64,000 nt of DNA, taken from the NCBI GenBank assembly GCA_031259085.1, contig JAIRMA010000041.1:1116-65115 (forward strand), in the 5' to 3' direction. Each line of letters begins with the position of its first letter. Position 1 is the stretch's first letter. The translations under genes and the position numbers were made by a program. Positions 37,445 through 53,098 of the stretch are shown piece by piece. The DNA comes from Christensenellaceae bacterium (GTDB lineage: Bacteria > Bacillota > Clostridia > Christensenellales > DTU072). Under the pieces are notes generated by a model that searched no databases, was not told the DNA's origin, and was given only the letters and a program-made list of their open reading frames with translations.

Positions 37445-37873
37445 TTAATTTTCATCGCATTTATTACAGTATGGGCATTTCCCATACACAAACAAATCGC
37501 GCCGAATTTCTTTAAACCCTGATGGCAGAACTATATTGTGAGTTTGTGGATCTAGATTTAGATCAAATATTTGCCCACATTCTGAACATCTAAAATGTCC
37601 ATGGTCTGGCATCGTTGCATCAAACCTCATCACATCACCATCAATACTAACGCTCCTGAGTAACCTCGCTCCTGTTAGAAGTAGTAATGTATTATAAATT
37701 GAAGTGCGCGATAATGTAGGGATCTCGCTCGCTAACTCTTTATAAATCATATCCACTGTCGGATGGCTAGTAACACTCTTTACAAATGAGAGTATCTTAA
37801 GCCTTACTAATGACGGTTTGATTCCTGCTTCTTTTAAAAGCAAAATGTTTTCTGTGTTCATTTTTGTACTCAT
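37445..37873 (-). CDS. Fur-family transcriptional regulator (PerR-like)
   Basis: wHTH N-terminus ([16 protein letters not shown]), [10 protein letters not shown] and a C-terminal CPYC zinc site. It lies upstream of rubrerythrin on the same strand. The start is at 37873 or 37861. Confidence 0.82.
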
Positions 37874-37883
37874 TACAATACTG

Positions 37884-37912
37884 ATTATATAACAAAAAAT
37901 AACCCTTGTCAA
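37884..37912 (-). promoter_or_regulatory. perfect consensus promoter TTGACA-17 nt-TATAAT for the Fur-family/rubrerythrin operon
   Basis: On the minus strand, TTGACA is at 37912-37907 and TATAAT at 37889-37884. The first ATG (37873) is only 10 nt past the -10 box, implying a near-leaderless mRNA. Confidence 0.6.
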
Positions 37913-41803: not shown

Positions 41804-42700
41804 TTGCTTGCATTTTTTCAAATGACATTCTCTAATCTAATTGACAAATATGCAAGACCGAATGAAGCAGTCACCATCACATTAAGCGGTGAATTAGATT
41901 CAGCTGTTGTTCTAGTACCAACAATTGACACAGGTTATTCCAATACAGAAGCTTTTAATTTATCATTCAAAGATAGTAAAATGGCACGACTTTCTGATGA
42001 AGTTATAGTAGAAAAGTTAGCGTCTCATTTTGACATAAAGCTTCATATCTTATATGGTGATGATAATTTTCATTATGATTTCCTTGATGTCGACGAAATA
42101 TAAACCAATTGCATCGAAGAAATTAACGGACCAGCTCAATTAGGTTGTTCAAGGTTTTATGGAGAAATTTCAAAACTAATTAGAAACCGCTGTGAAATTG
42201 TGTCTGGTGGTGATGGAGGTGATATACTATTTAATGGTACTAAATTTTGCGGAGACTATTTGATTAAAAACAGCCATTTTAGAGTTGCTAAAGAAAGAAG
42301 TTCCTATCTTTCACAGAAAAAAATAATTAGGAGGTTCATCAAATATAATGTAATCCCTTTTGTGCCCTTTATAAAAGATTGTTTTTACACTAAATATTTC
42401 TGGAGCGATGAAATTTCTTATCCAAATCCCAAATTCATGAATAATAAAAACTATAAACTAAAGACTTTTTTAAAAGACAAAAATAAACTCATTAAAAGTA
42501 GTGCATTTTGCAACACTTGAGCACAAAGATACATTTACAATTTTACGTTCTTTGTAGCTCCTACCAAAAATGATTTCTTTTATTTCAATCATTCCAATCC
42601 GCTCCTTGATTATGAAATTTTTAACTTTGCTTTCAAAATCTCCCCTTATCTCCATTATCCTATTTTCTTAGTGATATGATTTCGACGAAAATACCGCTTT
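41804..42700 (+). pseudogene. asparagine-synthetase-like PP-loop ATP pyrophosphatase domain, disrupted (in-frame TAA plus a later frameshift; no glutaminase domain seen)
   Basis: VTITLSGELDSAVVL is a degenerate SGGxDS PP-loop. The same frame resumes after a single TAA at 42104-42106 with VSGGDGGDILFNG (compare GxGGDELFgGY). After 42520 further AsnB-like text appears only in another frame. Confidence 0.5.
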
Positions 42701-42852
42701 ATAAACTGACGCGCATATTTAACTTAGATGATATTTGCAACAGTGTTAAATTAAAAAACACCACTATGGTATAAGAGTTTTGACAATCCTATATAATATT
42801 AATAATTATTTTAGAAATCGATGGAAAACTTTTGAAACATCATTTATATTTC

Positions 42853-42881
42853 TTGACAAAAAGTAAAGTTTTCATTACAAT
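42853..42881 (+). promoter_or_regulatory. sigma-70-type promoter TTGACA-17 nt-TACAAT of the aromatic amino acid operon
   Basis: Hexamers at 42853-42858 and 42876-42881. Confidence 0.6.
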
Positions 42882-42888
42882 AGTAAGT

Positions 42889-42957
42889 ATGATTTCATAT
42901 TCAAACTTTTTTTCACGCACATATTTTTCTTTCTGGGGCTACTTTAGTAACTTCTAA
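42889..42957 (+). CDS. candidate aromatic-rich leader peptide MISYSNFFSRTYFSFWGYFSNF
   Basis: A 22-codon ORF starting 7 nt after the -10 box. It has 7 Phe, 3 Tyr and 1 Trp, and ends in TAA at 42955-42957. It is followed by a terminator hairpin and then aroF. Confidence 0.55.
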   Translation: MISYSNFFSRTYFSFWGYFSNF

Positions 42958-43004
42958 TTTTGTGCGCGGTGATTTTTTGGATATACTATGTTTTAGAAAA
43001 TTTG

Positions 43005-43030
43005 AGCCGCTAATAGCGGCTTTATTTATA
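43005..43030 (+). terminator. intrinsic terminator / attenuator hairpin in the aro leader
   Basis: AGCCGCT-AAT-AGCGGCT gives a 7-bp GC-rich stem, followed by TTTATTTATAT. It lies about 60 nt before the aroF start. Confidence 0.55.
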
Positions 43031-43088
43031 TATTGCTTATTCTAGAGGGAAAATAATCTAAACAACATACTTATTTTTGGAGGCAGTC

Positions 43089-44105
43089 ATGATTCTTGTT
43101 ATAAAGAATGACAGTCAGACTCGACAATTAGATAATCTTATATCCTGGATTAAAAGTCTTGGGCTTAACGTACATCTAAGTCATGGTGAAAATTGTACAA
43201 TAATGGGCATAATTGGTGATACATCTCTTTTAGATATTGATCTTATTAACTCTCTAGACATTGTTGAAACAGTTAAACGTATTTCAGAACCCTATAAAAA
43301 ATCAAATAGAAAATTCCATCCTCAGGACACAATAATCGAAGTTGATCAAGCTAAATTTGGTGGTAAAAACTTTGCTGTAATTGCAGGACCTTGTTCTGTT
43401 GAAAGTGAAGAACAGATAATATCTATTGCTAGAGACGTAAAAGCCGCAGGGGCTACCGCGTTGCGTGGTGGTGCGTTTAAGCCAAGAACATCTCCTTATG
43501 CATTTCAAGGGCTCCGCGCGGACGGAATCCGTTTGCTTTTACTAGCAAAAAAAGAATGTGGTCTGCCAATTGTAACCGAAATCATGAGTGTCACGCATCT
43601 AGATATGTTTTCTGATGTTGATATTATTCAGATCGGCGCCCGCAATATGCAAAACTTTGAGCTCCTAAAAGAAGTGGGGAGGCTAAATAAGCCCATACTT
43701 TTAAAACGCGGACTTGCCAATACAATGGAAGAATGGATCATGAGTGCAGAATATATCATGGCAGAAGGCAATAGTAGAGTGATTTTATGTGAACGCGGGA
43801 TACGCACTTTTGAACATTACACACGTAACACGCTGGATTTATCTGCTATTCCTTTAGTAAAGGAGTTCACTCATTTGCCTGTAATCGTCGATCCATCACA
43901 TGCGTCTGGGCTTTCTAGACTTGTCAGACCATTATCCTTAGCATCCGCTGGCGTTGGTAGTGACGGATTGATCATTGAAGTTCACAACAATCCAGAAAAG
44001 GCTCTTTGTGATGGGCCTCAATGCATAAGACCAGCGCAATTTGCTGATATTATGAATAGAATAAAAGTAATTCTTCCACTTGTTGGTAAGGAGTGTTCTT
44101 TTTAA
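43089..44105 (+). CDS. aroF: 3-deoxy-7-phosphoheptulonate (DAHP) synthase, type I-beta, with an N-terminal ferredoxin-like regulatory domain
   Basis: The catalytic core has AGPCSVES, RGGAFKPRTSPY, KRG and DPSH motifs, preceded by a ~75-aa extra domain. The start at 43089 follows GGAGG. Confidence 0.9.
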   Translation: MILVIKNDSQTRQLDNLISWIKSLGLNVHLSHGENCTIMGIIGDTSLLDIDLINSLDIVETVKRISEPYKKSNRKFHPQDTIIEVDQAKFGGKNFAVIAGPCSVESEEQIISIARDVKAAGATALRGGAFKPRTSPYAFQGLRADGIRLLLLAKKECGLPIVTEIMSVTHLDMFSDVDIIQIGARNMQNFELLKEVGRLNKPILLKRGLANTMEEWIMSAEYIMAEGNSRVILCERGIRTFEHYTRNTLDLSAIPLVKEFTHLPVIVDPSHASGLSRLVRPLSLASAGVGSDGLIIEVHNNPEKALCDGPQCIRPAQFADIMNRIKVILPLVGKECSF

Positions 44106-44965
44106 TGAACATTGGAATCATCGGCTTAGGGTTAATCGGAGGTAGCATAGGGCGCGCCTTAATCAAGAAAACTGATCATGTCGTATATGGTTATGACACT
44201 TCATCTGATACTATGCTAAAAGCTAGTTTTCTGCCTGCAATCAACCATCCACTAACCGATTCTGATTATATTTGTCTAGATGTCTTAATTATCGCACTCA
44301 ACCCAGATGCTTTCGTGTCAGTTGCTAAAAACATTATACCAAAGTTAAAAAATGATGCCATAGTTATTGATATAGCTGGTAACAAAAGTAAGGTCTTAAA
44401 CGAAATGCGAAAGCTTGCTCTTGATTATCCTCTGATTAATTTTATAGGGACACATCCAATGGCAGGCAGGGAATATAGTGGAATCAATCATTCAACCCCA
44501 TACTTGTTTGAAAAGGCATCAATATTATTAATACCTCTGTCACAAGAGATATCCAAAATATCACTTTTGAAAATGCTTTTGTTATCAATCGGATTTAGTG
44601 ATGTTATAATAACAACCGATAAGATTCATGACAAAATAATCGCATATACGTCCCAGTTAGCACACATTATTTCTTCTAGTTATATTAAGTCTCCTACCGC
44701 AATAATTCATGACGGATATTCAGCTGGAAGTTTCAAGGATATATCTAGGGTAGCTCGTTTAAACGCTGACATGTGGGCAGAACTAATGACAGATAATTCG
44801 GATAATTTATTGTTTGAATTAGATCATTTTATTGCGAGTTTGAACGAATATAGACAAGCACTTACATCAAATAAGCGAGATCAACTTCGAGATCTTTTAC
44901 AGACTGGATCAGATATAAAGACTGCCATAGATAAGACTTCACGTGAATATAAAAGGAAATTATAG
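44105..44965 (+). CDS. tyrA: prephenate dehydrogenase
   Basis: MNIGIIGLGLIGGSIG Rossmann motif and GTHPMAGRE catalytic His region. The start forms a TAATG overlap with the aroF stop. Confidence 0.88.
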   Translation: MNIGIIGLGLIGGSIGRALIKKTDHVVYGYDTSSDTMLKASFLPAINHPLTDSDYICLDVLIIALNPDAFVSVAKNIIPKLKNDAIVIDIAGNKSKVLNEMRKLALDYPLINFIGTHPMAGREYSGINHSTPYLFEKASILLIPLSQEISKISLLKMLLLSIGFSDVIITTDKIHDKIIAYTSQLAHIISSSYIKSPTAIIHDGYSAGSFKDISRVARLNADMWAELMTDNSDNLLFELDHFIASLNEYRQALTSNKRDQLRDLLQTGSDIKTAIDKTSREYKRKL

Positions 44966-44973
44966 GAACATCA

Positions 44974-46017
44974 ATGGAAAAAATACTTGTAACCACATCA
45001 TCTGAAAATTATCAAGTAACTATAGGACCAGATCTCCTAAAAATGGCTTCGGATTTTACAGGCGTGAAGCTACATGCTTTTTCTAAAGTAGCAATTCTAA
45101 CTGACACTACAGTTGATCCTCTTTATTCTAATACACTTATCTCATCACTAAATTCAACTCAATGTGCTGTTTATAAATATATCATACCAAGTGGCGAGCG
45201 CAGTAAATCAATTATACAATATGAAAAGATATTGAATTTCCTAGCTGACAATAATTTTACACGACAAGATGTCCTTTTAGCTCTTGGTGGAGGCGTTGTT
45301 GGTGATTTAGGTGGATTTGTTGCAGCGACATTCAAGAGAGGCATAAATTATATCCAGGTGCCAACTACGCTTCTATCCATGATAGATTCATCAGTAGGCG
45401 GTAAAACTGGAATTAACCTCTCTAGTGGCAAAAATTTTGTAGGTGCTTTTTATCAGCCTCGATCAGTCATAGCAGACACAAATACTTTAAAAACCCTACC
45501 AGCTATAGAATTGATTAATGGATTAGGGGAATTGATTAAGTATGGGATATTAGCTGGTTATAATATATTCAGTGCTATTACTAAAGACAATTATTTGTCA
45601 CAAGAAACTCTAGCTAAATGCATTCAATATAAGGCAGAAATCGTACGCATCGATGAAAAAGAAAAAAATCAGAGAATGCTTCTTAATTTGGGGCATACAA
45701 TTGGCCATGCTATAGAAAGACTGTCTGAATACACAATCCCACACGGGCTTGCGGTTGGCATTGGTATTTCAATAATTGCCAAAGCTTGTTATAAGAACTC
45801 TCTTTTATCAAAAAGCGATTATCTTAAAATCTCAGATTGTCTTACAATATTTAATATCCCATTGGAATCTGAATTTGATATGAAGAGTCTAATAAATGCA
45901 AGCTTAGGAGACAAAAAGGTTATAAATAATAATTTTAATTTAGTTATTATACGGCAGATTGGTGTTTGCGAAATATTGCCTTTATCACTAGATGACTTTA
46001 GGGAGTTCTTTTTATGA
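44974..46017 (+). CDS. aroB: 3-dehydroquinate synthase
   Basis: GGGVVGDLGGFVAATFKRGI, DSSVGGKTGIN and LNLGHTIGHAIE motifs. Confidence 0.9.
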   Translation: MEKILVTTSSENYQVTIGPDLLKMASDFTGVKLHAFSKVAILTDTTVDPLYSNTLISSLNSTQCAVYKYIIPSGERSKSIIQYEKILNFLADNNFTRQDVLLALGGGVVGDLGGFVAATFKRGINYIQVPTTLLSMIDSSVGGKTGINLSSGKNFVGAFYQPRSVIADTNTLKTLPAIELINGLGELIKYGILAGYNIFSAITKDNYLSQETLAKCIQYKAEIVRIDEKEKNQRMLLNLGHTIGHAIERLSEYTIPHGLAVGIGISIIAKACYKNSLLSKSDYLKISDCLTIFNIPLESEFDMKSLINASLGDKKVINNNFNLVIIRQIGVCEILPLSLDDFREFFL

Positions 46018-47273
46018 TACTAAAATTTAATCCAGCGTTCCTCTCTGGTGTCGTTAACATGCCACCCTCTAAATCATATCTACACAGGCTTTTGATCGTC
46101 GCGGCTCTCTCCGACAAATCAACACAAATAATAGGTAAATCCGACGCAGAAGACGTCCTTGCTACCATATCTTGTTTGAGATCCCTTGGTGTAATTATAA
46201 CTGAAAATTCAACTGGTTATATAGTTAATCCAATTTGGAATAATTTGCAAAATATTACTCAGTTAGATGCAAACGAGAGTGGATCCACTTTTCGATTTTT
46301 AATCCCCGTCATAGCATCATTGAATTTGAAAAGTTGCCATTTCACAGGTAGCGAGCGATTATTAGAGCGTCCAATATTGGATTTGATACAATCACTAAAA
46401 GCGCACAATGCCAATATTGAATATGATCAGACTGGAATATATATATCATCAAGACTATCGCCTGGTAGATTCATAATTCGCGGGGACATAAGCTCACAAT
46501 TCATAACAGGTGTCCTTTTTGCCTGCCCTTTACTTAATGGCGATAGCGAAATAGTTATCACGGGGAAGAGACAAAGCCAGAGTTATATTGATTTAACAAT
46601 TGAGATTATGCAGAAATTCGGAATCAAAATTTCAACAACACCTGATGGTTATTATATTGCAGGTGGGCAAGTATATACATCCCCCTATTTTGTAAAAGCT
46701 GAGGGAGATTGGTCTAATGCGGCATTCTGGTTAGTGGCTGGCGCACTAAACGGAGACATTATTGTAAACGGATTAAATTTGCACTCAACCCAAGGAGATC
46801 GTGCCATTTTTAATATATTAAAAGCTGGAGGGGTTAATATTTTTATAACCGAAACTAATGGTGTGCATGTAAAACAGTCTGTCGTTTATCCGTTTTCTTG
46901 TGACCTCGCAAATATTCCTGATTTGGGTCCAATATTGTCAATATTAGCAACTGCAATCATTGGTAATTGTACACTCACAAATATCGAAAGACTACGTCTA
47001 AAGGAATGTGATCGAGTAATGGCTATAGAGGAAACTTTAGATCGCTTAAAAATTCATGCCTTTACTGATGTAAATAGCTTAACCATAACAGGCGGTCAAA
47101 TGCAAGGAGCCACTTTGAAAGGTTATAACGATCATCGAATGGTTATGAGTGCAGCAGTGGCGGGCTCAGTAGTGCCCATTATTCTAACTGGTGCTAATGC
47201 TTTCAAAAAGAGTTATCCCTCTTTTTTTGAGGTATATGAGAGTCTAGGAGGCAATTATGAGACTATGGAATAA
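46014..47273 (+). CDS. aroA: 3-phosphoshikimate 1-carboxyvinyltransferase (EPSP synthase)
   Basis: PPSKSYLHR, ESGSTFRF, LKECDR and DHRMVMS motifs. 4-nt overlap with aroB. Confidence 0.9.
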   Translation: MILKFNPAFLSGVVNMPPSKSYLHRLLIVAALSDKSTQIIGKSDAEDVLATISCLRSLGVIITENSTGYIVNPIWNNLQNITQLDANESGSTFRFLIPVIASLNLKSCHFTGSERLLERPILDLIQSLKAHNANIEYDQTGIYISSRLSPGRFIIRGDISSQFITGVLFACPLLNGDSEIVITGKRQSQSYIDLTIEIMQKFGIKISTTPDGYYIAGGQVYTSPYFVKAEGDWSNAAFWLVAGALNGDIIVNGLNLHSTQGDRAIFNILKAGGVNIFITETNGVHVKQSVVYPFSCDLANIPDLGPILSILATAIIGNCTLTNIERLRLKECDRVMAIEETLDRLKIHAFTDVNSLTITGGQMQGATLKGYNDHRMVMSAAVAGSVVPIILTGANAFKKSYPSFFEVYESLGGNYETME

Positions 47274-48357
47274 TGGGCTGGCTTTACATATTTATGGTGA
47301 ATCCCATGGTCCTGAGATTGGGTTGATATTAGAAGGAATTCCAAAAGGTTGTAGTATTAACCTAGATGAGTTGCAAAATTTTGTAAACCGACGTAAAAGC
47401 CAAAATTCTAACTATTCGACAAAGCGTGCTGAACCAGATTCAATAACCGTGCAGAGTGGTATAACGGACGGGATTACAAGTGGATCTATTAAAATATCAA
47501 TAAAAAACACTGATGTTAGAGAAGTGGATTATGAAAATTTAAATTCGATTCCTAGGCCATCACACGCAGATTATCCTGCATATATTAAATACGCTGGAAA
47601 TCTTAACATGTCTGGCGGTGGTCCGTTTTCTGGCAGATTGACAGCACCCATAGTGATCGCTGGTGGCATCGCATCACAAATCCTTAAATCCTATTTCAAT
47701 ATCCCTCTTTTCTCTCATATTACGAGCATTGGGCCTGTATCAAGTGATAATTTTGAATACAGTAAATTACCTTTTGAAGAATTAAATGCCCTTAAATACA
47801 ATAATTTTCCCGTACTGGACGATAACAAAAAGCTTGAAATGTGTGAAGTCATAAATAATGCTAGCTTAAAAGGTGATTCCATAGGTGGTGTCATAGAAGG
47901 CGTTGCTTTTAATTTACCAGTTGGCTGGGGCGGGCCTCTGTTTGATGGTATCGAATCTAGATTAGCAGCATTATTGTTTGGTATTCCTGCAGTTAAAGGG
48001 GTCGAATTCGGTGCAGGATTTGCAATATCTAAGATGTTAGGATCTAAAGCCAATGATCAGTTTGAGTTCAATAATGGTAAGGTTGTTTTATTATCAAATA
48101 ACAATGGTGGGCTAACAGGCGGCATGACAAATGGTATGCCAGTTATAGTGAGAGTAGCATTCAAGCCAACCCCGTCTATATCCATCCCACAGAAAAGTGT
48201 TAATCTTAAGACAAAGGAAAATGTTATATTGCAAATCAAAGGCAGACATGATGTCTGTTTTGTTCCACGTGCAGTAGTTGTAGTTGAAAGTGCACTAGCA
48301 ATAGCATTGTTAGATGTTGCTTTAGAGAATGGAACTTTTAACAACCAAATTATGTGA
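47257..48357 (+). CDS. aroC: chorismate synthase
   Basis: YGESHG, RPSHADY and GRHDVC(F)VPRA motifs. Confidence 0.9.
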   Translation: MRLWNNGLALHIYGESHGPEIGLILEGIPKGCSINLDELQNFVNRRKSQNSNYSTKRAEPDSITVQSGITDGITSGSIKISIKNTDVREVDYENLNSIPRPSHADYPAYIKYAGNLNMSGGGPFSGRLTAPIVIAGGIASQILKSYFNIPLFSHITSIGPVSSDNFEYSKLPFEELNALKYNNFPVLDDNKKLEMCEVINNASLKGDSIGGVIEGVAFNLPVGWGGPLFDGIESRLAALLFGIPAVKGVEFGAGFAISKMLGSKANDQFEFNNGKVVLLSNNNGGLTGGMTNGMPVIVRVAFKPTPSISIPQKSVNLKTKENVILQIKGRHDVCFVPRAVVVVESALAIALLDVALENGTFNNQIM

Positions 48358-48529
48358 TAATATTTGTGTTGTATAACATGAATAAATTAAGTGCGCTTGA
48401 CTTTAGCGTAATGCCACTGAACATAAAACCCCAACACTTAGTCTAAAACATTAAGCGAGGCATTTGGTAGAATGTGGAATAAAGTCACAAATCATAATGA
48501 TTTTATTAAATTAGATAGAGGTATTGTTT

Positions 48530-49669
48530 ATGTCTGACATCGAACAAAAACGTCATCTGTTAGACAAAATAGATGACAAAATAGCCAAATTATACGCCGA
48601 ACGTATGGCTATTGTAAAAGAAATTGGAATTGCTAAAAGTATTGCTAAAATCAATATAATTGATGAAGCTCGGGAACAAAGTATCATATGCCGAGTTACA
48701 AAACCACTTGATAGTGATTTAAAAATTTTCACCAAGCAATTATTTATGACAATATTAGACACGTCCAAAGCTTATCAGAGTCGTTACACATGCCCTGACA
48801 CTAAACTAAGTTCAGCCCTTGAAATTGCTTTAACGGAAAAAGCTAAACCTCCAGTTGATGCTGTGATCGCGTGTCAAGGGGTGGAAGGCTCTTACTCTAG
48901 CATAGCAGCCGAGAAATTGTTTCAAATACCAGATATAACATATTTCAAAACATTTGATGGCGTTTTCAATGCAGTAGAATCTGGGCTTTGTCAATTTGGC
49001 GTGTTGCCTATTGAAAATAGTACTGCAGGATCTGTCAATGCGGTGTATGACTTAATGCGTAAATATAATTTTCATATTGTGAGATCAGTTAAGTTGCCAG
49101 TTAGACACAGTCTGTTAGCAAAAAAGGGAACTACTAAAAATGGTATTCGTGAAATTTTCTCTCATGAACAAGCTATTAATCAGTGTAGTGAATATCTGAA
49201 ACAATTCAAGAATGTGAAAATAACCGTTTGTGAGAATACCGCAGTAGCAGCAAAATTAGCAGCTGAACATCCTGATATGAATGTTGCATCTCTGTCGGCA
49301 CCACGATGCGCTGAAATGTATGGATTGATTGCACTAGAGGCCGACGTGCAAGATAACGATCGAAACTACACTAGGTTTATTTGTATAACTAAGAAGTTAA
49401 CTATCTATTCAGGGGCAGATAAGATTAGTATAATGATCAATCTACCACATGAACCTGGCAGCCTTAACAGACTACTATCTAAGTTTTCTGCAATCGGATT
49501 AAATCTAACTAAACTTGAATCTAGACCTTCAACTGGCACAAATTTCGAATTCTTGTTTTATTTTGACTTCGTAGGCGATCTCGAAAACCCTGAAGTCTTC
49601 AGTTTGATAACTGACCTCTCAAACAGAGCTGATAAATTTGTTTTCTTGGGCTGTTATAGAGAAGAATAG
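48530..49669 (+). CDS. pheA: bifunctional chorismate mutase / prephenate dehydratase (P-protein) with C-terminal ACT domain
   Basis: N-terminal AroQ-type CM helix (IDDKIAKLYAERMAIVKEIG), PDT core (GVEGSYS, GVLPIENSTAGSV, NYTRF) and ACT region (PGSL...LTKLESRP). Confidence 0.88.
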   Translation: MSDIEQKRHLLDKIDDKIAKLYAERMAIVKEIGIAKSIAKINIIDEAREQSIICRVTKPLDSDLKIFTKQLFMTILDTSKAYQSRYTCPDTKLSSALEIALTEKAKPPVDAVIACQGVEGSYSSIAAEKLFQIPDITYFKTFDGVFNAVESGLCQFGVLPIENSTAGSVNAVYDLMRKYNFHIVRSVKLPVRHSLLAKKGTTKNGIREIFSHEQAINQCSEYLKQFKNVKITVCENTAVAAKLAAEHPDMNVASLSAPRCAEMYGLIALEADVQDNDRNYTRFICITKKLTIYSGADKISIMINLPHEPGSLNRLLSKFSAIGLNLTKLESRPSTGTNFEFLFYFDFVGDLENPEVFSLITDLSNRADKFVFLGCYREE

Positions 49670-49685
49670 GTGCAACGTGCAAGGA

Positions 49686-50918
49686 ATGAAATTTTGCTTA
49701 ATTGGCAGATCTTTAGGGCATAGCTACTCACCCAAAATTCATCGTCATTTTGGTTATACATACGACATTGTTGAACTGGAAATAGGAGAGCTCGAGCGCT
49801 TTGTCAAAACCACTACCTATGATGGGTTTAATGTAACTATTCCATACAAATTAGAGATTATGAAATATTTAGATTGTCTAGATAGATCAGCAATTCAAGC
49901 GGGCTCAGTCAATACTGTAATCAAATCTCAGAGCGGCTGGATAGGGTTTAATACTGATGTTAAAGGTCTTGACTATTTAGTATGTGATTCTAACATTTCA
50001 TTAACTAATAAAAAGGTTATAATTTTTGGGAGTGGTGGCACATCCAAAACAGCGTGTACCTTAGCTAGTATTAAAGGAGCTTCAGAAATCGTTGTTGTTA
50101 GTCGAAATGGGATTAACAATTATAACAATCTGAAAAAACATTTTGATGCAGAAATTATTATAAACACTACACCAGTAGGGATGTATCCTAATAATATGGA
50201 ACGCTTAGTAGATATATCTAACTTTTCTAAAGTGTCTGGGGTCATTGATGTTATATATAACCCTACTATCACTGATTTAATATTTCAGGCTCGTTCATTA
50301 AATATTAATTGTTCGAGTGGTTTAAAGATGTTGGTAGCACAAGCCAAATACGCACGTGACCTGTTTTTAAAAAATGAGTCTGATAATTCTTTAATAGAAA
50401 ATATATATTCTATTATCTCAATGCAAACCACAAATATTGTTTTAATAGGTATGCCATCATGTGGCAAATCTTTAATTGGTCGCAAATTGGCAAGTATCCT
50501 AAATAGAGAATTTGTTGATACTGACACTGAAACTGAGACCCTGATGGGGATTAGTATCCCAGATGCTTTTAATAAACATGGTGAGGCATATTTTAGGGAA
50601 TCAGAACGTTATTGTATTGATCTAATAGGAAAAAGACAAGGATTAGTGATAGCAACAGGAGGCGGAGCAGTCTTTAATTCTGATTGTTATAAATATCTAA
50701 AACAAAACGGTGTAATTGTACTTTTGACAAGAGATTTATCTAAAGCCGTTTGTGACGGCAGACCTCTTTTGAGGGACAAAAGCTCCCTTGTAACCTTGTT
50801 TAATGAAAGATTTCCTAAATATCAACTCTTATCTGATACAACTATTTCTAATGACTTAGATCCAAATAAGACGATACAAAATATTATGAGGTGGCTTAAT
50901 GAATATTACAATAATTAA
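49686..50918 (+). CDS. aroE/aroK: shikimate dehydrogenase - shikimate kinase fusion
   Basis: The N-terminal ~260 aa are AroE-like (GHSYSPKIH, FNVTIPYK, NTD..G, GSGGTSK). The C-terminal ~165 aa are AroK-like (LIGMPSCGKS P-loop, VIATGGG). Confidence 0.85.
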   Translation: MKFCLIGRSLGHSYSPKIHRHFGYTYDIVELEIGELERFVKTTTYDGFNVTIPYKLEIMKYLDCLDRSAIQAGSVNTVIKSQSGWIGFNTDVKGLDYLVCDSNISLTNKKVIIFGSGGTSKTACTLASIKGASEIVVVSRNGINNYNNLKKHFDAEIIINTTPVGMYPNNMERLVDISNFSKVSGVIDVIYNPTITDLIFQARSLNINCSSGLKMLVAQAKYARDLFLKNESDNSLIENIYSIISMQTTNIVLIGMPSCGKSLIGRKLASILNREFVDTDTETETLMGISIPDAFNKHGEAYFRESERYCIDLIGKRQGLVIATGGGAVFNSDCYKYLKQNGVIVLLTRDLSKAVCDGRPLLRDKSSLVTLFNERFPKYQLLSDTTISNDLDPNKTIQNIMRWLNEYYNN

Positions 50919-51342
50919 CGGACCTAATCTTAACATGCTCGGCGTTAGAGAACCCACTTTATATGGAAGCGGCACGCTAAAAGATCTTGAAAATTATATT
51001 ATGGAATCTTCTAAAAGATTTAATAATGTACATCTTGAATTTTTTCAAACTAACCATGAAGGCACCATTATTGATATAATTCAAAATTTGGTCGGGGTTG
51101 CAAATGGCTTGATAATCAATGCAGGGGCATACACTCACACTAGTATTGGGATCTTAGATGCAATTAAAGCAGTAAATATCCCTACCGTAGAAGTTCATTT
51201 AACAGATGTAGAAAACCGGGAGGTTTTTAGACATATCAGTTATATTTCACTAGTAGCAAAAAAAATAATTAGTGGTAAGGGTTTTGACGGGTACGTTGAG
51301 GGCCTTGAATTTTTGGTTGCTAACTTTTCTGAACAACAATAA
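50899..51342 (+). CDS. aroQ: type II 3-dehydroquinate dehydratase
   Basis: INGPNLNMLG..EP..YG, FFQTNHEG, INAGAYTHTS and VEVHL motifs. Confidence 0.9.
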   Translation: MNITIINGPNLNMLGVREPTLYGSGTLKDLENYIMESSKRFNNVHLEFFQTNHEGTIIDIIQNLVGVANGLIINAGAYTHTSIGILDAIKAVNIPTVEVHLTDVENREVFRHISYISLVAKKIISGKGFDGYVEGLEFLVANFSEQQ

Positions 51343-51347
51343 TCCTA

Positions 51348-51941
51348 TTAGCTTTCTGGTAATTTCTCATCTAAATAAGAGGCCTGGACGTCAGCTAAAT
51401 GGAGCATTAGTGCAATTGGATAATTATAGTAGACTTTTGATAATGCGCCTGCTCCAGCTCCTTTAATTCTATCATCAAAGCCTCCCATGTGCCAATTAAT
51501 CGCGAGAGCCTCCTTTCTAGTCAATCTCATAAACCCATTTATTATATATACTGATTTTTCGCCATGCCCAAATGGCAAATCATCATCAATTACATAATAT
51601 GGTTTTTTAGACCAGTTACCATTTGCATCTTTAAAATTTCTATATTCTATTTTATACATGTTTGTTTTACAGACATCATGCAATAGTCCACAAATTGCAA
51701 CCGTTTCATGGGAACATTGATCTTCCCAATTTTCCCCATATTCTAGTTCAACTAATTTTACCAATCTGTTATATACGTTTATGCTATGCAAGCAAAGCCC
51801 ACTAACCTCAGCTGAATGGAACTTTGTGCTTGCAGGAGCAGTAAAAAAATCACTGGACTTTAAATATTCCAGAAGTTTTTCAGCCCCAGCGCGTTCAATG
51901 AACGTTTCATAAATTTCTATAAAGGATTCTTTGACATCCAT
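51348..51941 (-). CDS. HD-domain metal-dependent phosphohydrolase
   Basis: 197 aa carrying H...HD (LHSINV...GLLHDVCK) and a later HLAD. Substrate is unknown. Confidence 0.7.
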   Translation of the reverse strand: MDVKESFIEIYETFIERAGAEKLLEYLKSSDFFTAPASTKFHSAEVSGLCLHSINVYNRLVKLVELEYGENWEDQCSHETVAICGLLHDVCKTNMYKIEYRNFKDANGNWSKKPYYVIDDDLPFGHGEKSVYIINGFMRLTRKEALAINWHMGGFDDRIKGAGAGALSKVYYNYPIALMLHLADVQASYLDEKLPES

Positions 51942-51955
51942 TTTTATCTCCTTTG

Positions 51956-53098
51956 CTAACCAAACACAGCTAAGAGTACACCTGCAGCAACCGCAGAACC
52001 TATAACGCCAGCGACGTTAGGCCCCATTGCATGCATTAACAAGTAATTGCCTGGATTAGCCTTTTGCCCCTCAATTTGTGATATTCTAGCAGCCATTGGT
52101 ACTGCTGACACTCCAGCAGAGCCAATTAGAGGATTTACTTTTCCCTTTGTTATTACATACATAAGCTTACCAAATAATAGACCTCCCACTGTGCTGAACA
52201 TAAATGCAGCAAGCCCAAGTCCAATTATCGATAATGTCTGTGTTTGTAAAAATGTTTCCCCATTTGCTGTGACCCCTACAGACACTCCTAAAAATATTGT
52301 CACTATGTTTATAAGCGCATTTTGTGCAGTTGATGAGAGCCGTTCAACAACACAGGACTCTTTAAATAAATTCCCCAACATTAACATCCCAATAAGAGGT
52401 GCTACTGATGGCAAAAGCAGAACACAAATTACAGTTACAATGATAGGAAAACAAATTTTTTCTATTTTACTAACCTTGCGTGGGGTCTGCATTATTGTTT
52501 GACGTTCTTTCTTTGTAGTGAGGAGCCTCATGATAGGGGGCTGTATCATTGGAATTAACGCCATGTAAGAATAGGCTGCGATTGCAATTGCTGGCAATAA
52601 TTCTGGCTTTAATTTTGTTGTTAAGAAAATAGCGGTTGGGCCATCTGCTCCCCCTATAATAGCAATCGATGCTGCCGCTTGATCATCAAAACCTATTTGC
52701 GTGGCAATAACAAAGGCAATAGCTATTCCAAGCTGAGCCCCAGCACCTAATAACAATGAGGATGGTCTAGCTAAAAGTGGACCAAAATCAGTCATTGCTC
52801 CAATTCCTAAAAATATTATCGATGGATAAATTCCATATTCAACCCCTAAGTGTAAATAATATAATAGACCCTTATTAGTAGTAGTAGCATCGTAAATGCC
52901 TGTGTTGGGAAAGTTTGCAAGGAGCATACCAAATGCGATTGGCAATAAAAGCATAGGTTCAAACTTTTTAGCTATTGCTAAGAATATTAAAATAAAAGCA
53001 ATCCCCATCATAATTGCTTGCTGTATGCTTAACGTTGCAAATCCAGATTCTGACCATAGTTGTATAATTGTCTCTTTTATTTGCATAAGTCCCTCCAT
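51956..53098 (-). CDS. sodium ion-translocating decarboxylase, beta subunit (OadB/GcdB/MmdB family)
   Basis: A ~375-aa polytopic protein with typical family segments (IGGADGPTAI, LIGSAGVSAVPMAAR, HAMGPNVAGVIGSA). Confidence 0.85.
   Translation of the reverse strand: MEGLMQIKETIIQLWSESGFATLSIQQAIMMGIAFILIFLAIAKKFEPMLLLPIAFGMLLANFPNTGIYDATTTNKGLLYYLHLGVEYGIYPSIIFLGIGAMTDFGPLLARPSSLLLGAGAQLGIAIAFVIATQIGFDDQAAASIAIIGGADGPTAIFLTTKLKPELLPAIAIAAYSYMALIPMIQPPIMRLLTTKKERQTIMQTPRKVSKIEKICFPIIVTVICVLLLPSVAPLIGMLMLGNLFKESCVVERLSSTAQNALINIVTIFLGVSVGVTANGETFLQTQTLSIIGLGLAAFMFSTVGGLLFGKLMYVITKGKVNPLIGSAGVSAVPMAARISQIEGQKANPGNYLLMHAMGPNVAGVIGSAVAAGVLLAVFG

Follow-up and report, generated by a model that had tools for sequence, protein, structure and literature searches.

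The window analysed here, namely a 64,000-nucleotide stretch of contig JAIRMA010000041.1 from a Christensenellaceae bacterium (assembly GCA_031259085.1), contains an operon for aromatic amino acid biosynthesis, aroF-tyrA-aroB-aroA-aroC-pheA-aroEK-aroQ (43089..51342, + strand), and upstream of it a leader region that we propose to be a transcription attenuator. On the basis of Pfam matches, the first four genes encode DAHP synthase, prephenate dehydrogenase, DHQ synthase and EPSP synthase, and the last four encode chorismate synthase, CM-PDT (chorismate mutase-prephenate dehydratase, the product of pheA), a shikimate dehydrogenase-kinase fusion and a type II dehydroquinase. The eight genes are co-directional and closely packed, and they cover the entire common pathway together with the phenylalanine (Phe) and tyrosine (Tyr) branches; trp genes are absent. 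The start codon of aroF at 43089 is preceded by a Shine-Dalgarno (SD) sequence, GGAGG, at 43079..43083 (+ strand).

Anatomy of the leader region

Three features, all on the + strand, make up the leader. First, a sigma-70-type promoter lies at 42853..42881, with TTGACA at 42853-42858, a 17-nt spacer and TACAAT at 42876-42881 (11/12 match), and is the joint-best-scoring + strand promoter-like site in a scan of 42000-52000. Second, only 7 nt after the -10 box (42882-42888), and with no SD in between, an ATG at 42889 opens a small open reading frame (sORF) of 22 codons, which spans 42889..42957, ends with TAA at 42955-57 and encodes the peptide MISYSNFFSRTYFSFWGYFSNF. Its codons, namely atg att tca tat tca aac ttt ttt tca cgc aca tat ttt tct ttc tgg ggc tac ttt agt aac ttc taa, specify 10 aromatic residues out of 22 (45%; 6 Phe, 3 Tyr and 1 Trp). 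Third, between the sORF and aroF, the hairpin GAGCCGCT-AAT-AGCGGCTT at 43004-43022 (-12.1 kcal/mol, z=-4.12), followed by TATTTATAT at 43023-43031, scores as an intrinsic terminator. An earlier reading of this DNA, hereafter the original prediction, had called the promoter, the closely following sORF, the GC-rich hairpin and the SD-led aroF as the first of eight genes including tyrA and pheA, all of which are borne out by direct reading, the promoter scan, folding and Pfam; its count of 11 aromatic residues with 7 Phe was wrong.

The aromatic content of this sORF stands out from its surroundings. Among the 606 ATG-initiated ORFs of 15-40 aa found on both strands of the window, it is the most aromatic and the only one to reach 40% or more, the 99th percentile being 29%. 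A scan of the whole window for other sORFs with single-amino-acid runs gave noise only.

Conservation upstream of aroF orthologs

Lack of conservation of the sORF in relatives had been named in the original prediction as a finding that would speak against it, and a survey of aroF orthologs gave the opposite result. A protein scan with AroF, limited to one genome per species, retrieved 80 ortholog loci with 62-92% identity, mostly from metagenome-assembled genomes labelled Christensenellaceae, Clostridia, Oscillospiraceae or Anaerovoracaceae. We then applied a strict filter that asks for an ATG-initiated sORF with a dense Phe/Tyr cluster plus a strong hairpin and U-tract upstream of aroF. This filter is passed by 55 of the 80 loci, which belong to Christensenellales, Oscillospiraceae, Anaerovoracaceae and others, and in at least 11 further loci, below the thresholds, a Phe/Tyr-rich sORF is visible by eye. 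Isolates among the carriers are Anaerovorax odorimutans, Hominibacterium faecale, Flintibacter faecis, Pseudoflavonifractor capillosus, Yeguia hominis and Miniphocaeibacter massiliensis. In the 55 loci the distance from the sORF stop codon to the terminator is 17-58 nt, and the terminators have energies from -10 to -28 kcal/mol.

The leader peptides of these relatives, exemplified by MKTRLFNIYTWNFYGYYYSC, MKENFAQFAYYFYFGYIA and MLNKFNTFAAEYFYFYFTFFFKSKVNFAAMG, have a median length of 22 aa (range 9-44 aa). Over 51 non-redundant peptides the share of Phe is 20%, that of Tyr 16% and that of Trp 0.6%, and 49 of them have at least two Phe and at least two Tyr. Since many of these leader regions have a GC content of 45-53%, T-rich drift cannot explain their Phe/Tyr-rich ORFs. 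The peptide sequence is otherwise poorly kept; what is kept is its composition, its position and the terminator. On these counts, the occurrence of a Phe/Tyr-rich sORF plus terminator before aroF is beyond chance.

Alternative RNA structures in the window

Four segments of the + strand make up the pairing scheme of the leader. Region 1 (42897..42921), the 5' strand of the anti-antiterminator, lies inside the sORF; its span, codons 3-11, falls between and next to the codons for Phe7/Phe8 and Tyr12/Phe13. Region 2 (42961..42984) starts 4 nt past the stop codon, and can pair either with region 1 or, via 42966-42981, with region 3. The latter (42992..43011) pairs with region 2 through 42992-43002 and 43006-43010, and its segment 43004-43011 is also the 5' arm of the terminator. 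Region 4 (43015..43022) is the terminator 3' arm, directly followed by the U-tract.

The three structures were folded separately, each against dinucleotide shuffles. The 1:2 structure (42897-42921 with 42961-42984) has -17.6 kcal/mol (z=-3.17), and the 2:3 antiterminator (42966-42981 with 42992-43002 and 43006-43010) has -13.3 kcal/mol (z=-2.48); the values for the 3:4 terminator are those given above. Thus, the mutually exclusive terminator and antiterminator that the original prediction had proposed to look for by folding do exist, and each structure beats its shuffles. The minimum free energy structure of the ribosome-free leader combines the long 1:2 helix with the terminator (-30.1 kcal/mol, z=-3.05), and in it TCACGCACA (42913-21) pairs with TGTGCGCGGTGA (42961-72). 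The fold of the nascent RNA instead pairs GCGGT (42966-70) with GCCGC (43006-10) and lengthens this helix by joining 42971-81 to 42992-43002. These are the two competing pairings that had been read from the sequence, and both are present in the computed folds.

We further modelled the ribosome as a mask of ~30 nt in constrained folds, with the following results. First, region 1 is covered and region 2 set free by masks that place the A site at codon 8, 12, 13 or 15, while masks at codons 18-19 leave the 1:2 structure intact. Second, the mask of a ribosome on the stop codon reaches ~42969, and under it the 2:3 helix, with its core at +11 to +15 relative to the stop, is lost. Third, when the nascent transcript extends only as far as the terminator loop and the 3' arm has not yet been made, region 2 pairs with the terminator 5' arm, and this pairing fails with a ribosome on the stop codon.

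Pairing logic across the family

The same logic was evaluated in the relatives by folding, for each locus, the RNA that begins immediately downstream of a ribosome stalled at the aromatic cluster and extends to the terminator loop. Over 51 non-redundant loci, upstream sequence pairs with an average of 77% of the terminator 5' arm, compared with 54% in shuffled sequences (Wilcoxon p=4.7e-7), and the mean energy z is -1.18. Region 2, of which the motif GTGCG(C)GG is kept in relatives, is found at +6 to +21 relative to the stop codon where the peptide is short, in the Christensenellales-like leaders, and inside the ORF, in its final 35 nt, where the peptide is longer, in Oscillospiraceae and Anaerovoracaceae. 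It can fold back on the part of the ORF next to the aromatic run (66% vs 51% of nucleotides paired, p=3e-5). This pairing explains why the few conserved non-aromatic residues, 'FAA', 'AAQ' and 'AAE', are found at the flanks of the Phe/Tyr run: they correspond to GCUGC/GCAGC pairing segments.

A second 'FAA' occurs near the C-terminus in leaders of the Oscillospiraceae/Anaerovoracaceae type, where the complementary GCUGC and GCAGC are regions 1 and 2. Leaders of this type are found in L033, L035, L047-L050, L055, L060, L062, L063, L068, L071, L074 and L075 (L numbers denote related aroF loci), in regions ~100-250 nt upstream of aroF. Judging from these coincidences, peptide conservation in the 'FAA'-type leaders is driven by RNA structure.

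The partners of the antiterminator also change together. Cognate duplexes of region 2 and terminator arm beat non-cognate ones (permutation p=0.0035), an effect that is modest because CCGC-type arms are common to many terminators. At least five classes of region 2 and arm differ in sequence yet stay complementary, namely, GCGGU/GCCGC (window, L001, L006, L007 and L010), UGCGAU/AUCGCA (L002), GCGUGG/CCACGC (L013), AUCGGU/GCCGAU (L016) and GGUGUGCG/CGACACC (L020-L029 and L057). In an alignment of the nine sequences of the closest subgroup with the named structures (A3), the antiterminator is 88.7% paired, compared with no more than 56.5% for shifted positions of the partner, and the terminator is 92.1% paired; one clean compensatory double change, from G-C to A-U, is seen in L002. 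Alignment of 15 whole leaders with MAFFT, followed by RNAalifold, gave no consensus structure, since this alignment was not structurally consistent. Taken with the folds of the window, the family statistics and the compensatory change in L002 support the 1:2 / 2:3 / 3:4 logic that had been proposed for the window.

Probable leaderless initiation

The distance between promoter and sORF suggests that the transcript starts at, or close to, the start codon. TTGACA-17-TAnnAT is kept in the window, L001 and L002, where it ends 7, 6 and 9 nt before the ATG, respectively. We defined a leaderless geometry as a -35 box with at least 5/6 matches, a total of at least 10/12, a promoter end 5-10 nt before the sORF ATG and no SD. 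This geometry is found in 17 of 56 leaders, with the promoter ending 6-9 nt before the ATG, as opposed to 10 of 5448 other ATG triplets of the same loci (0.18%; binomial p=3e-33). The 17 loci are the window, L001, L002, L004, L006-8, L010, L013, L020-22, L024, L029, L032, L042 and L057; they include the closest relatives of the window by AroF identity (66-92%), and are otherwise very diverged, with 25-53% GC. In another 27 leaders, the -10 box instead stands 21-37 nt upstream and a clear GGAG-type SD is present. Related lineages thus appear to use one attenuator design with two initiation modes, SD-led and leaderless-looking, the window being of the latter kind. Examples of SD-led Phe/Tyr leaders with a terminator are those in L009, L012, L016, L018, L033, L047, L062 and L077.

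These results favour the 'apparently leaderless' character that the original prediction had assigned to the sORF, and from the promoter geometry we regard it as probable that the window sORF is leaderless. The main competing explanation accepts the same Phe/Tyr attenuator but gives it a 5' untranslated region (UTR): the transcript would start further upstream, 42780-42809 being one candidate promoter, or just a few nt ahead of the ATG, and initiation at the sORF would be SD-independent and A/U-rich. A second promoter-like site, TTGACA-18-AATTAT, does lie at 42780-42809 (10/12), 80 nt 5' of the sORF, and could yield a leadered transcript, which weighs against the leaderless reading; purines 42885-42886 are possible start sites that would leave a 5' UTR of 3-4 nt; and beyond the Christensenellales-like group most relatives (27 loci) rely on an SD and a 5' UTR of 21-37 nt. 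However, the upstream site is not kept in L001 or L002, whereas the 6-9 nt spacing from -10 box to ATG is kept in 17 diverged loci, none of them with an SD, over the very low background given above. A leadered start is, in our view, unlikely.

Elsewhere in the window, a 142-aa ORF at 37873 (- strand) is preceded by TTGACA-17-TATAAT at ~37883-37911, with 10 nt (cagtattgta, no SD) to its ATG. This second leaderless-looking gene hints that the organism may use leaderless initiation more widely.

Proposed mechanism and alternative explanations

Based on the anatomy, the structures and their conservation, we estimate at roughly 80% the probability that the element is a Phe/Tyr-sensing, ribosome-mediated transcription attenuator that controls read-through into the aroF operon. 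It would work as follows. Transcription would start at, or within a few nt of, the AUG of the sORF, giving a leaderless mRNA, and a ribosome would translate the 22-codon ORF directly behind RNA polymerase. When both Phe and Tyr are plentiful, this ribosome would reach the UAA at 42955-57 and its footprint would cover the start of region 2 (to ~42969), so that the terminator at 43004-43022 forms and transcription stops at the U-tract. When either amino acid is scarce, the ribosome would stall at Phe7/8, Tyr12, Phe13 or Phe15 and cover region 1; region 2 (42966-81) would then be free to pair with 42992-43010 as soon as this segment is made, which would sequester the terminator 5' arm and let the polymerase read through. 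If no ribosome has loaded, region 1 (42897-42921) would pair with region 2 and the terminator would again form. The signal sensed would be charged tRNA-Phe and tRNA-Tyr.

This reading of the element as a Phe/Tyr leader-peptide attenuator, which was also that of the original prediction, agrees with the conservation, with the three structures and with the family pairing statistics; the start site, the stalling of the ribosome and the response to amino acid supply are predicted from these. The following observations weigh against it. The terminator hairpin persists at equilibrium under every ribosome mask tested, and together with an adjacent AU hairpin it reaches -17.1, a lower energy than the -14.6 of the antiterminator. 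The antiterminator GC core of the window has 5 bp only, one of them G-U, and the U-tract is interrupted (UUUAUUUAUAU). The window alone is not significant in the family test (z=-1.5), with 5/8 nt of the arm paired vs 4.5 in shuffled sequences. In the ribosome-free nascent fold a partial 1:2 helix and the 2:3 helix occur side by side, and therefore the state without translation is not cleanly 'off' in silico. Lastly, covariation is thin in the closest subgroup, where three core pairs are invariant and there is the one double change.

Because the terminator was never displaced at equilibrium, regulation would have to be kinetic, and a purely thermodynamic switch was rejected in favour of a kinetic one, as the antiterminator appeared in nascent folds only. 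Classical attenuators such as the E. coli trp leader work kinetically, with a terminator state slightly more stable than the antiterminator. The energy order computed for the window, with the terminator state slightly above the antiterminator in stability, matches this pattern.

Two explanations dispense with the attenuator. According to the first, the sORF is incidental: the hairpin either serves simply to terminate or insulate against transcription arriving from upstream, or is read through under the control of a factor acting in trans, for example an RNA-binding protein or a tRNA. The thermodynamic dominance of the terminator in all folds fits this explanation, as does the fact that the hairpin scores as a terminator on the minus strand too. 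Yet the upstream ORF ends at 42520 and a promoter intervenes before the terminator; an aromatic-biased sORF and a terminator co-occur in at least 55 loci, with region 2 placed at the stop codon there; and no T-box or other Rfam element is found in the window or in 36 related loci. We consider this explanation highly improbable. Even less weight can be given to a function of the peptide itself, in which a small aromatic or hydrophobic product rather than the act of translation would matter: the sORF does have an ATG start and is kept as an ORF of 9-44 aa, but its composition and not its sequence is kept (compare MISYSNFFSRTYFSFWGYFSNF, MKTRLFNIYTWNFYGYYYSC and MLNKFNTFAAEYFYFYFTFFFKSKVNFAAMG), those non-aromatic residues that are conserved (FAA, AAQ) fall on segments involved in RNA pairing, and the sORF comes with aroF and a terminator in every case.

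Other features of the operon and its surroundings

Within the operon, the ORF at 49638-50918 joins a shikimate dehydrogenase N-terminal domain and a shikimate kinase domain, that is, an aroE-aroK fusion. At the boundary between the chorismate synthase gene and pheA there is a non-coding gap of 166 nt (48358-48523), which has a promoter-like TTGACT-17-AACATA at ~48397-48425 and no terminator. This site may be an internal promoter for pheA-aroEK-aroQ. A terminator-like hairpin, GCGGACGGAATCCGTTTGC followed by TTTTAC, at 43518-43536 falls within the aroF coding region and is probably a chance match. On the 5' side of the leader, two small ORFs, at 41804-42103 (99 aa) and 42200-42520 (106 aa), have no Pfam match.

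Relation to catalogued families and significance

At gathering thresholds, Rfam 15, which includes the Phe, Trp, leu-phe, His, Thr and Leu leader families, gave no match in the window nor in 36 related loci. The best sub-threshold leader match in the window at E<=10 was Trp_leader, with 17.5 bits against a gathering threshold of 41 (E 0.94), and Phe_leader gave none. T-boxes were likewise absent, even at E<=10 in 42500-43200 and at gathering thresholds in the 36 related loci. Membership of a known Rfam leader family, with nothing but that sub-threshold Trp_leader match, and identity as a T-box, with no covariance-model match, were both rejected. The element nevertheless has the sequence-testable defining features of a classical leader-peptide attenuator, among them an sORF rich in codons for the products of its operon: the operon makes Phe and Tyr, and the corresponding enrichment is seen in 55-66 of the 80 loci. 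By these features it resembles a classical attenuator, and it lies outside the catalogued Rfam leader families.

In Bacillota, control of amino acid operons is commonly ascribed to T-boxes or RNA-binding proteins, with leader-peptide attenuators regarded as rare (PMC2965389, PMC5314783). In the literature found, the coverage of which is partial so that an earlier description is possible, no Phe/Tyr leader peptide before aroF is described in Clostridia; within the same partial coverage, no leaderless attenuator is described in Bacillota. What we see is apparently a widespread clostridial family with a leaderless sub-branch, uncatalogued and undescribed for Clostridia. A broader proposition is tentative, and we would put it slightly below even odds: that a large, uncatalogued family of Phe/Tyr attenuators, rather than T-boxes, controls entry into the shikimate pathway in much of Clostridia, and that its Christensenellales-like branch is leaderless and constitutes the first leaderless attenuator family in Bacillota. 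If so, the family would span Christensenellales, Oscillospirales, Anaerovoracaceae and others, and in the leaderless branch the sensing ribosome would have to load on a 5'-terminal AUG directly behind RNA polymerase.

The value of these observations lies in their breadth. No fewer than two thirds of the 80 clostridial genomes sampled, cultured gut isolates included, have one sORF plus terminator design ahead of aroF, which would make aromatic amino acid regulation in abundant gut anaerobes predictable from sequence. It also fills an annotation gap, as no Rfam model exists for the Phe/Tyr aroF leader. The natural pairs of SD-led and leaderless-looking versions of one attenuator could be used to ask how the mode of ribosome loading affects transcription-translation coupling. 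Since the mechanism itself is a textbook one, the gain in concept is moderate; the clostridial breadth and the paired variants are useful and mildly surprising.

Comparison with known systems

The original prediction had held this arrangement to be unknown from such genomes. This stands in so far as we found it undescribed for Clostridia, and has to be qualified in view of precedents in Corynebacterium, Acholeplasma and the actinobacterial leaderless leaders, which are compared in the following.

With T-box leaders, the element shares the regulatory position and the terminator/antiterminator output to tRNA charging; unlike in T-boxes, sensing in the window is proposed to proceed via translation and not by direct tRNA binding. 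Classical attenuation also occurs alongside T-boxes in other Bacillota. One such attenuator is the leu/phe leader of Lactococcus (Rfam). Others have been reported as exceptions, namely the His leader of hisZ/hisS in bacilli (PMC2965389) and a leuL-like Leu leader in Streptococcus (PMC5314783). Unlike the element in the window, these His, Leu and leu/phe leaders involve other amino acids or genes and are narrowly distributed, and none of them is leaderless or linked to aroF. Premature termination in the 5' UTR of aroF has been reported for C. difficile, where it is unexplained (PMC8237595).

The uORFC-13-1 motif, predicted bioinformatically in Acholeplasma, consists of an upstream ORF with Phe codons, followed by an intrinsic terminator and aroF (Brewer et al., 2021; PMC8632094). 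Compared by description only, it resembles the window in having a Phe-codon ORF directly before a terminator and aroF in a Bacillota-related lineage. In contrast to the window, it is described with a ribosome-binding site and 'at least one' Phe codon arising from a U run, and it has 24 representatives, confined to Acholeplasma and environmental sequences.

In Actinobacteria, the aroR leader peptide before aroF of C. glutamicum, with the motif Phe-Tyr-Phe, is reported to respond experimentally to Phe limitation (Neshat et al., 2014; PMC11802643, PMC4046766, PMC3890552). From these accounts, aroR-aroF is like the window in placing a leader peptide with Phe/Tyr codons before a DAHP synthase gene, stalling of its ribosome raising aro transcription, and differs in its phylum and in having Phe-Tyr-Phe only, as opposed to 10 aromatic codons. 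The two have no detectable sequence relationship, and the operon of the window, unlike aroR-aroF, also has tyrA, pheA and the whole shikimate pathway. Precedents for leaderless leader peptides come from the same phylum: trpL1, ilvL and leuL2 of Streptomyces lividans, which are followed by a hairpin and U-tract (PMC8079986), ilvL of C. glutamicum (PMC11857589), and the Cys-sensing polycysteine sORFs of mycobacteria (bioRxiv 10.1101/834739). As we infer for the window, the sensory sORF of these leaders is at the 5' end of the transcript, and several have a hairpin and U-tract; however, they belong to a phylum where leaderless mRNAs are common and they sense other amino acids. The mycobacterial Cys elements, moreover, act on translation of the next gene and not via an intrinsic terminator.

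In its architecture, the element also resembles the enterobacterial pheL-pheA and trpL attenuators. It shares with them, first, the four-region 1:2 / 2:3 / 3:4 logic; second, regulatory codons that overlap or abut region 1; third, a stop codon just before region 2; and fourth, a terminator more stable than the antiterminator. Unlike the window, pheL-pheA and trpL are SD-led, sense one amino acid and control a terminal branch, and not the common pathway.

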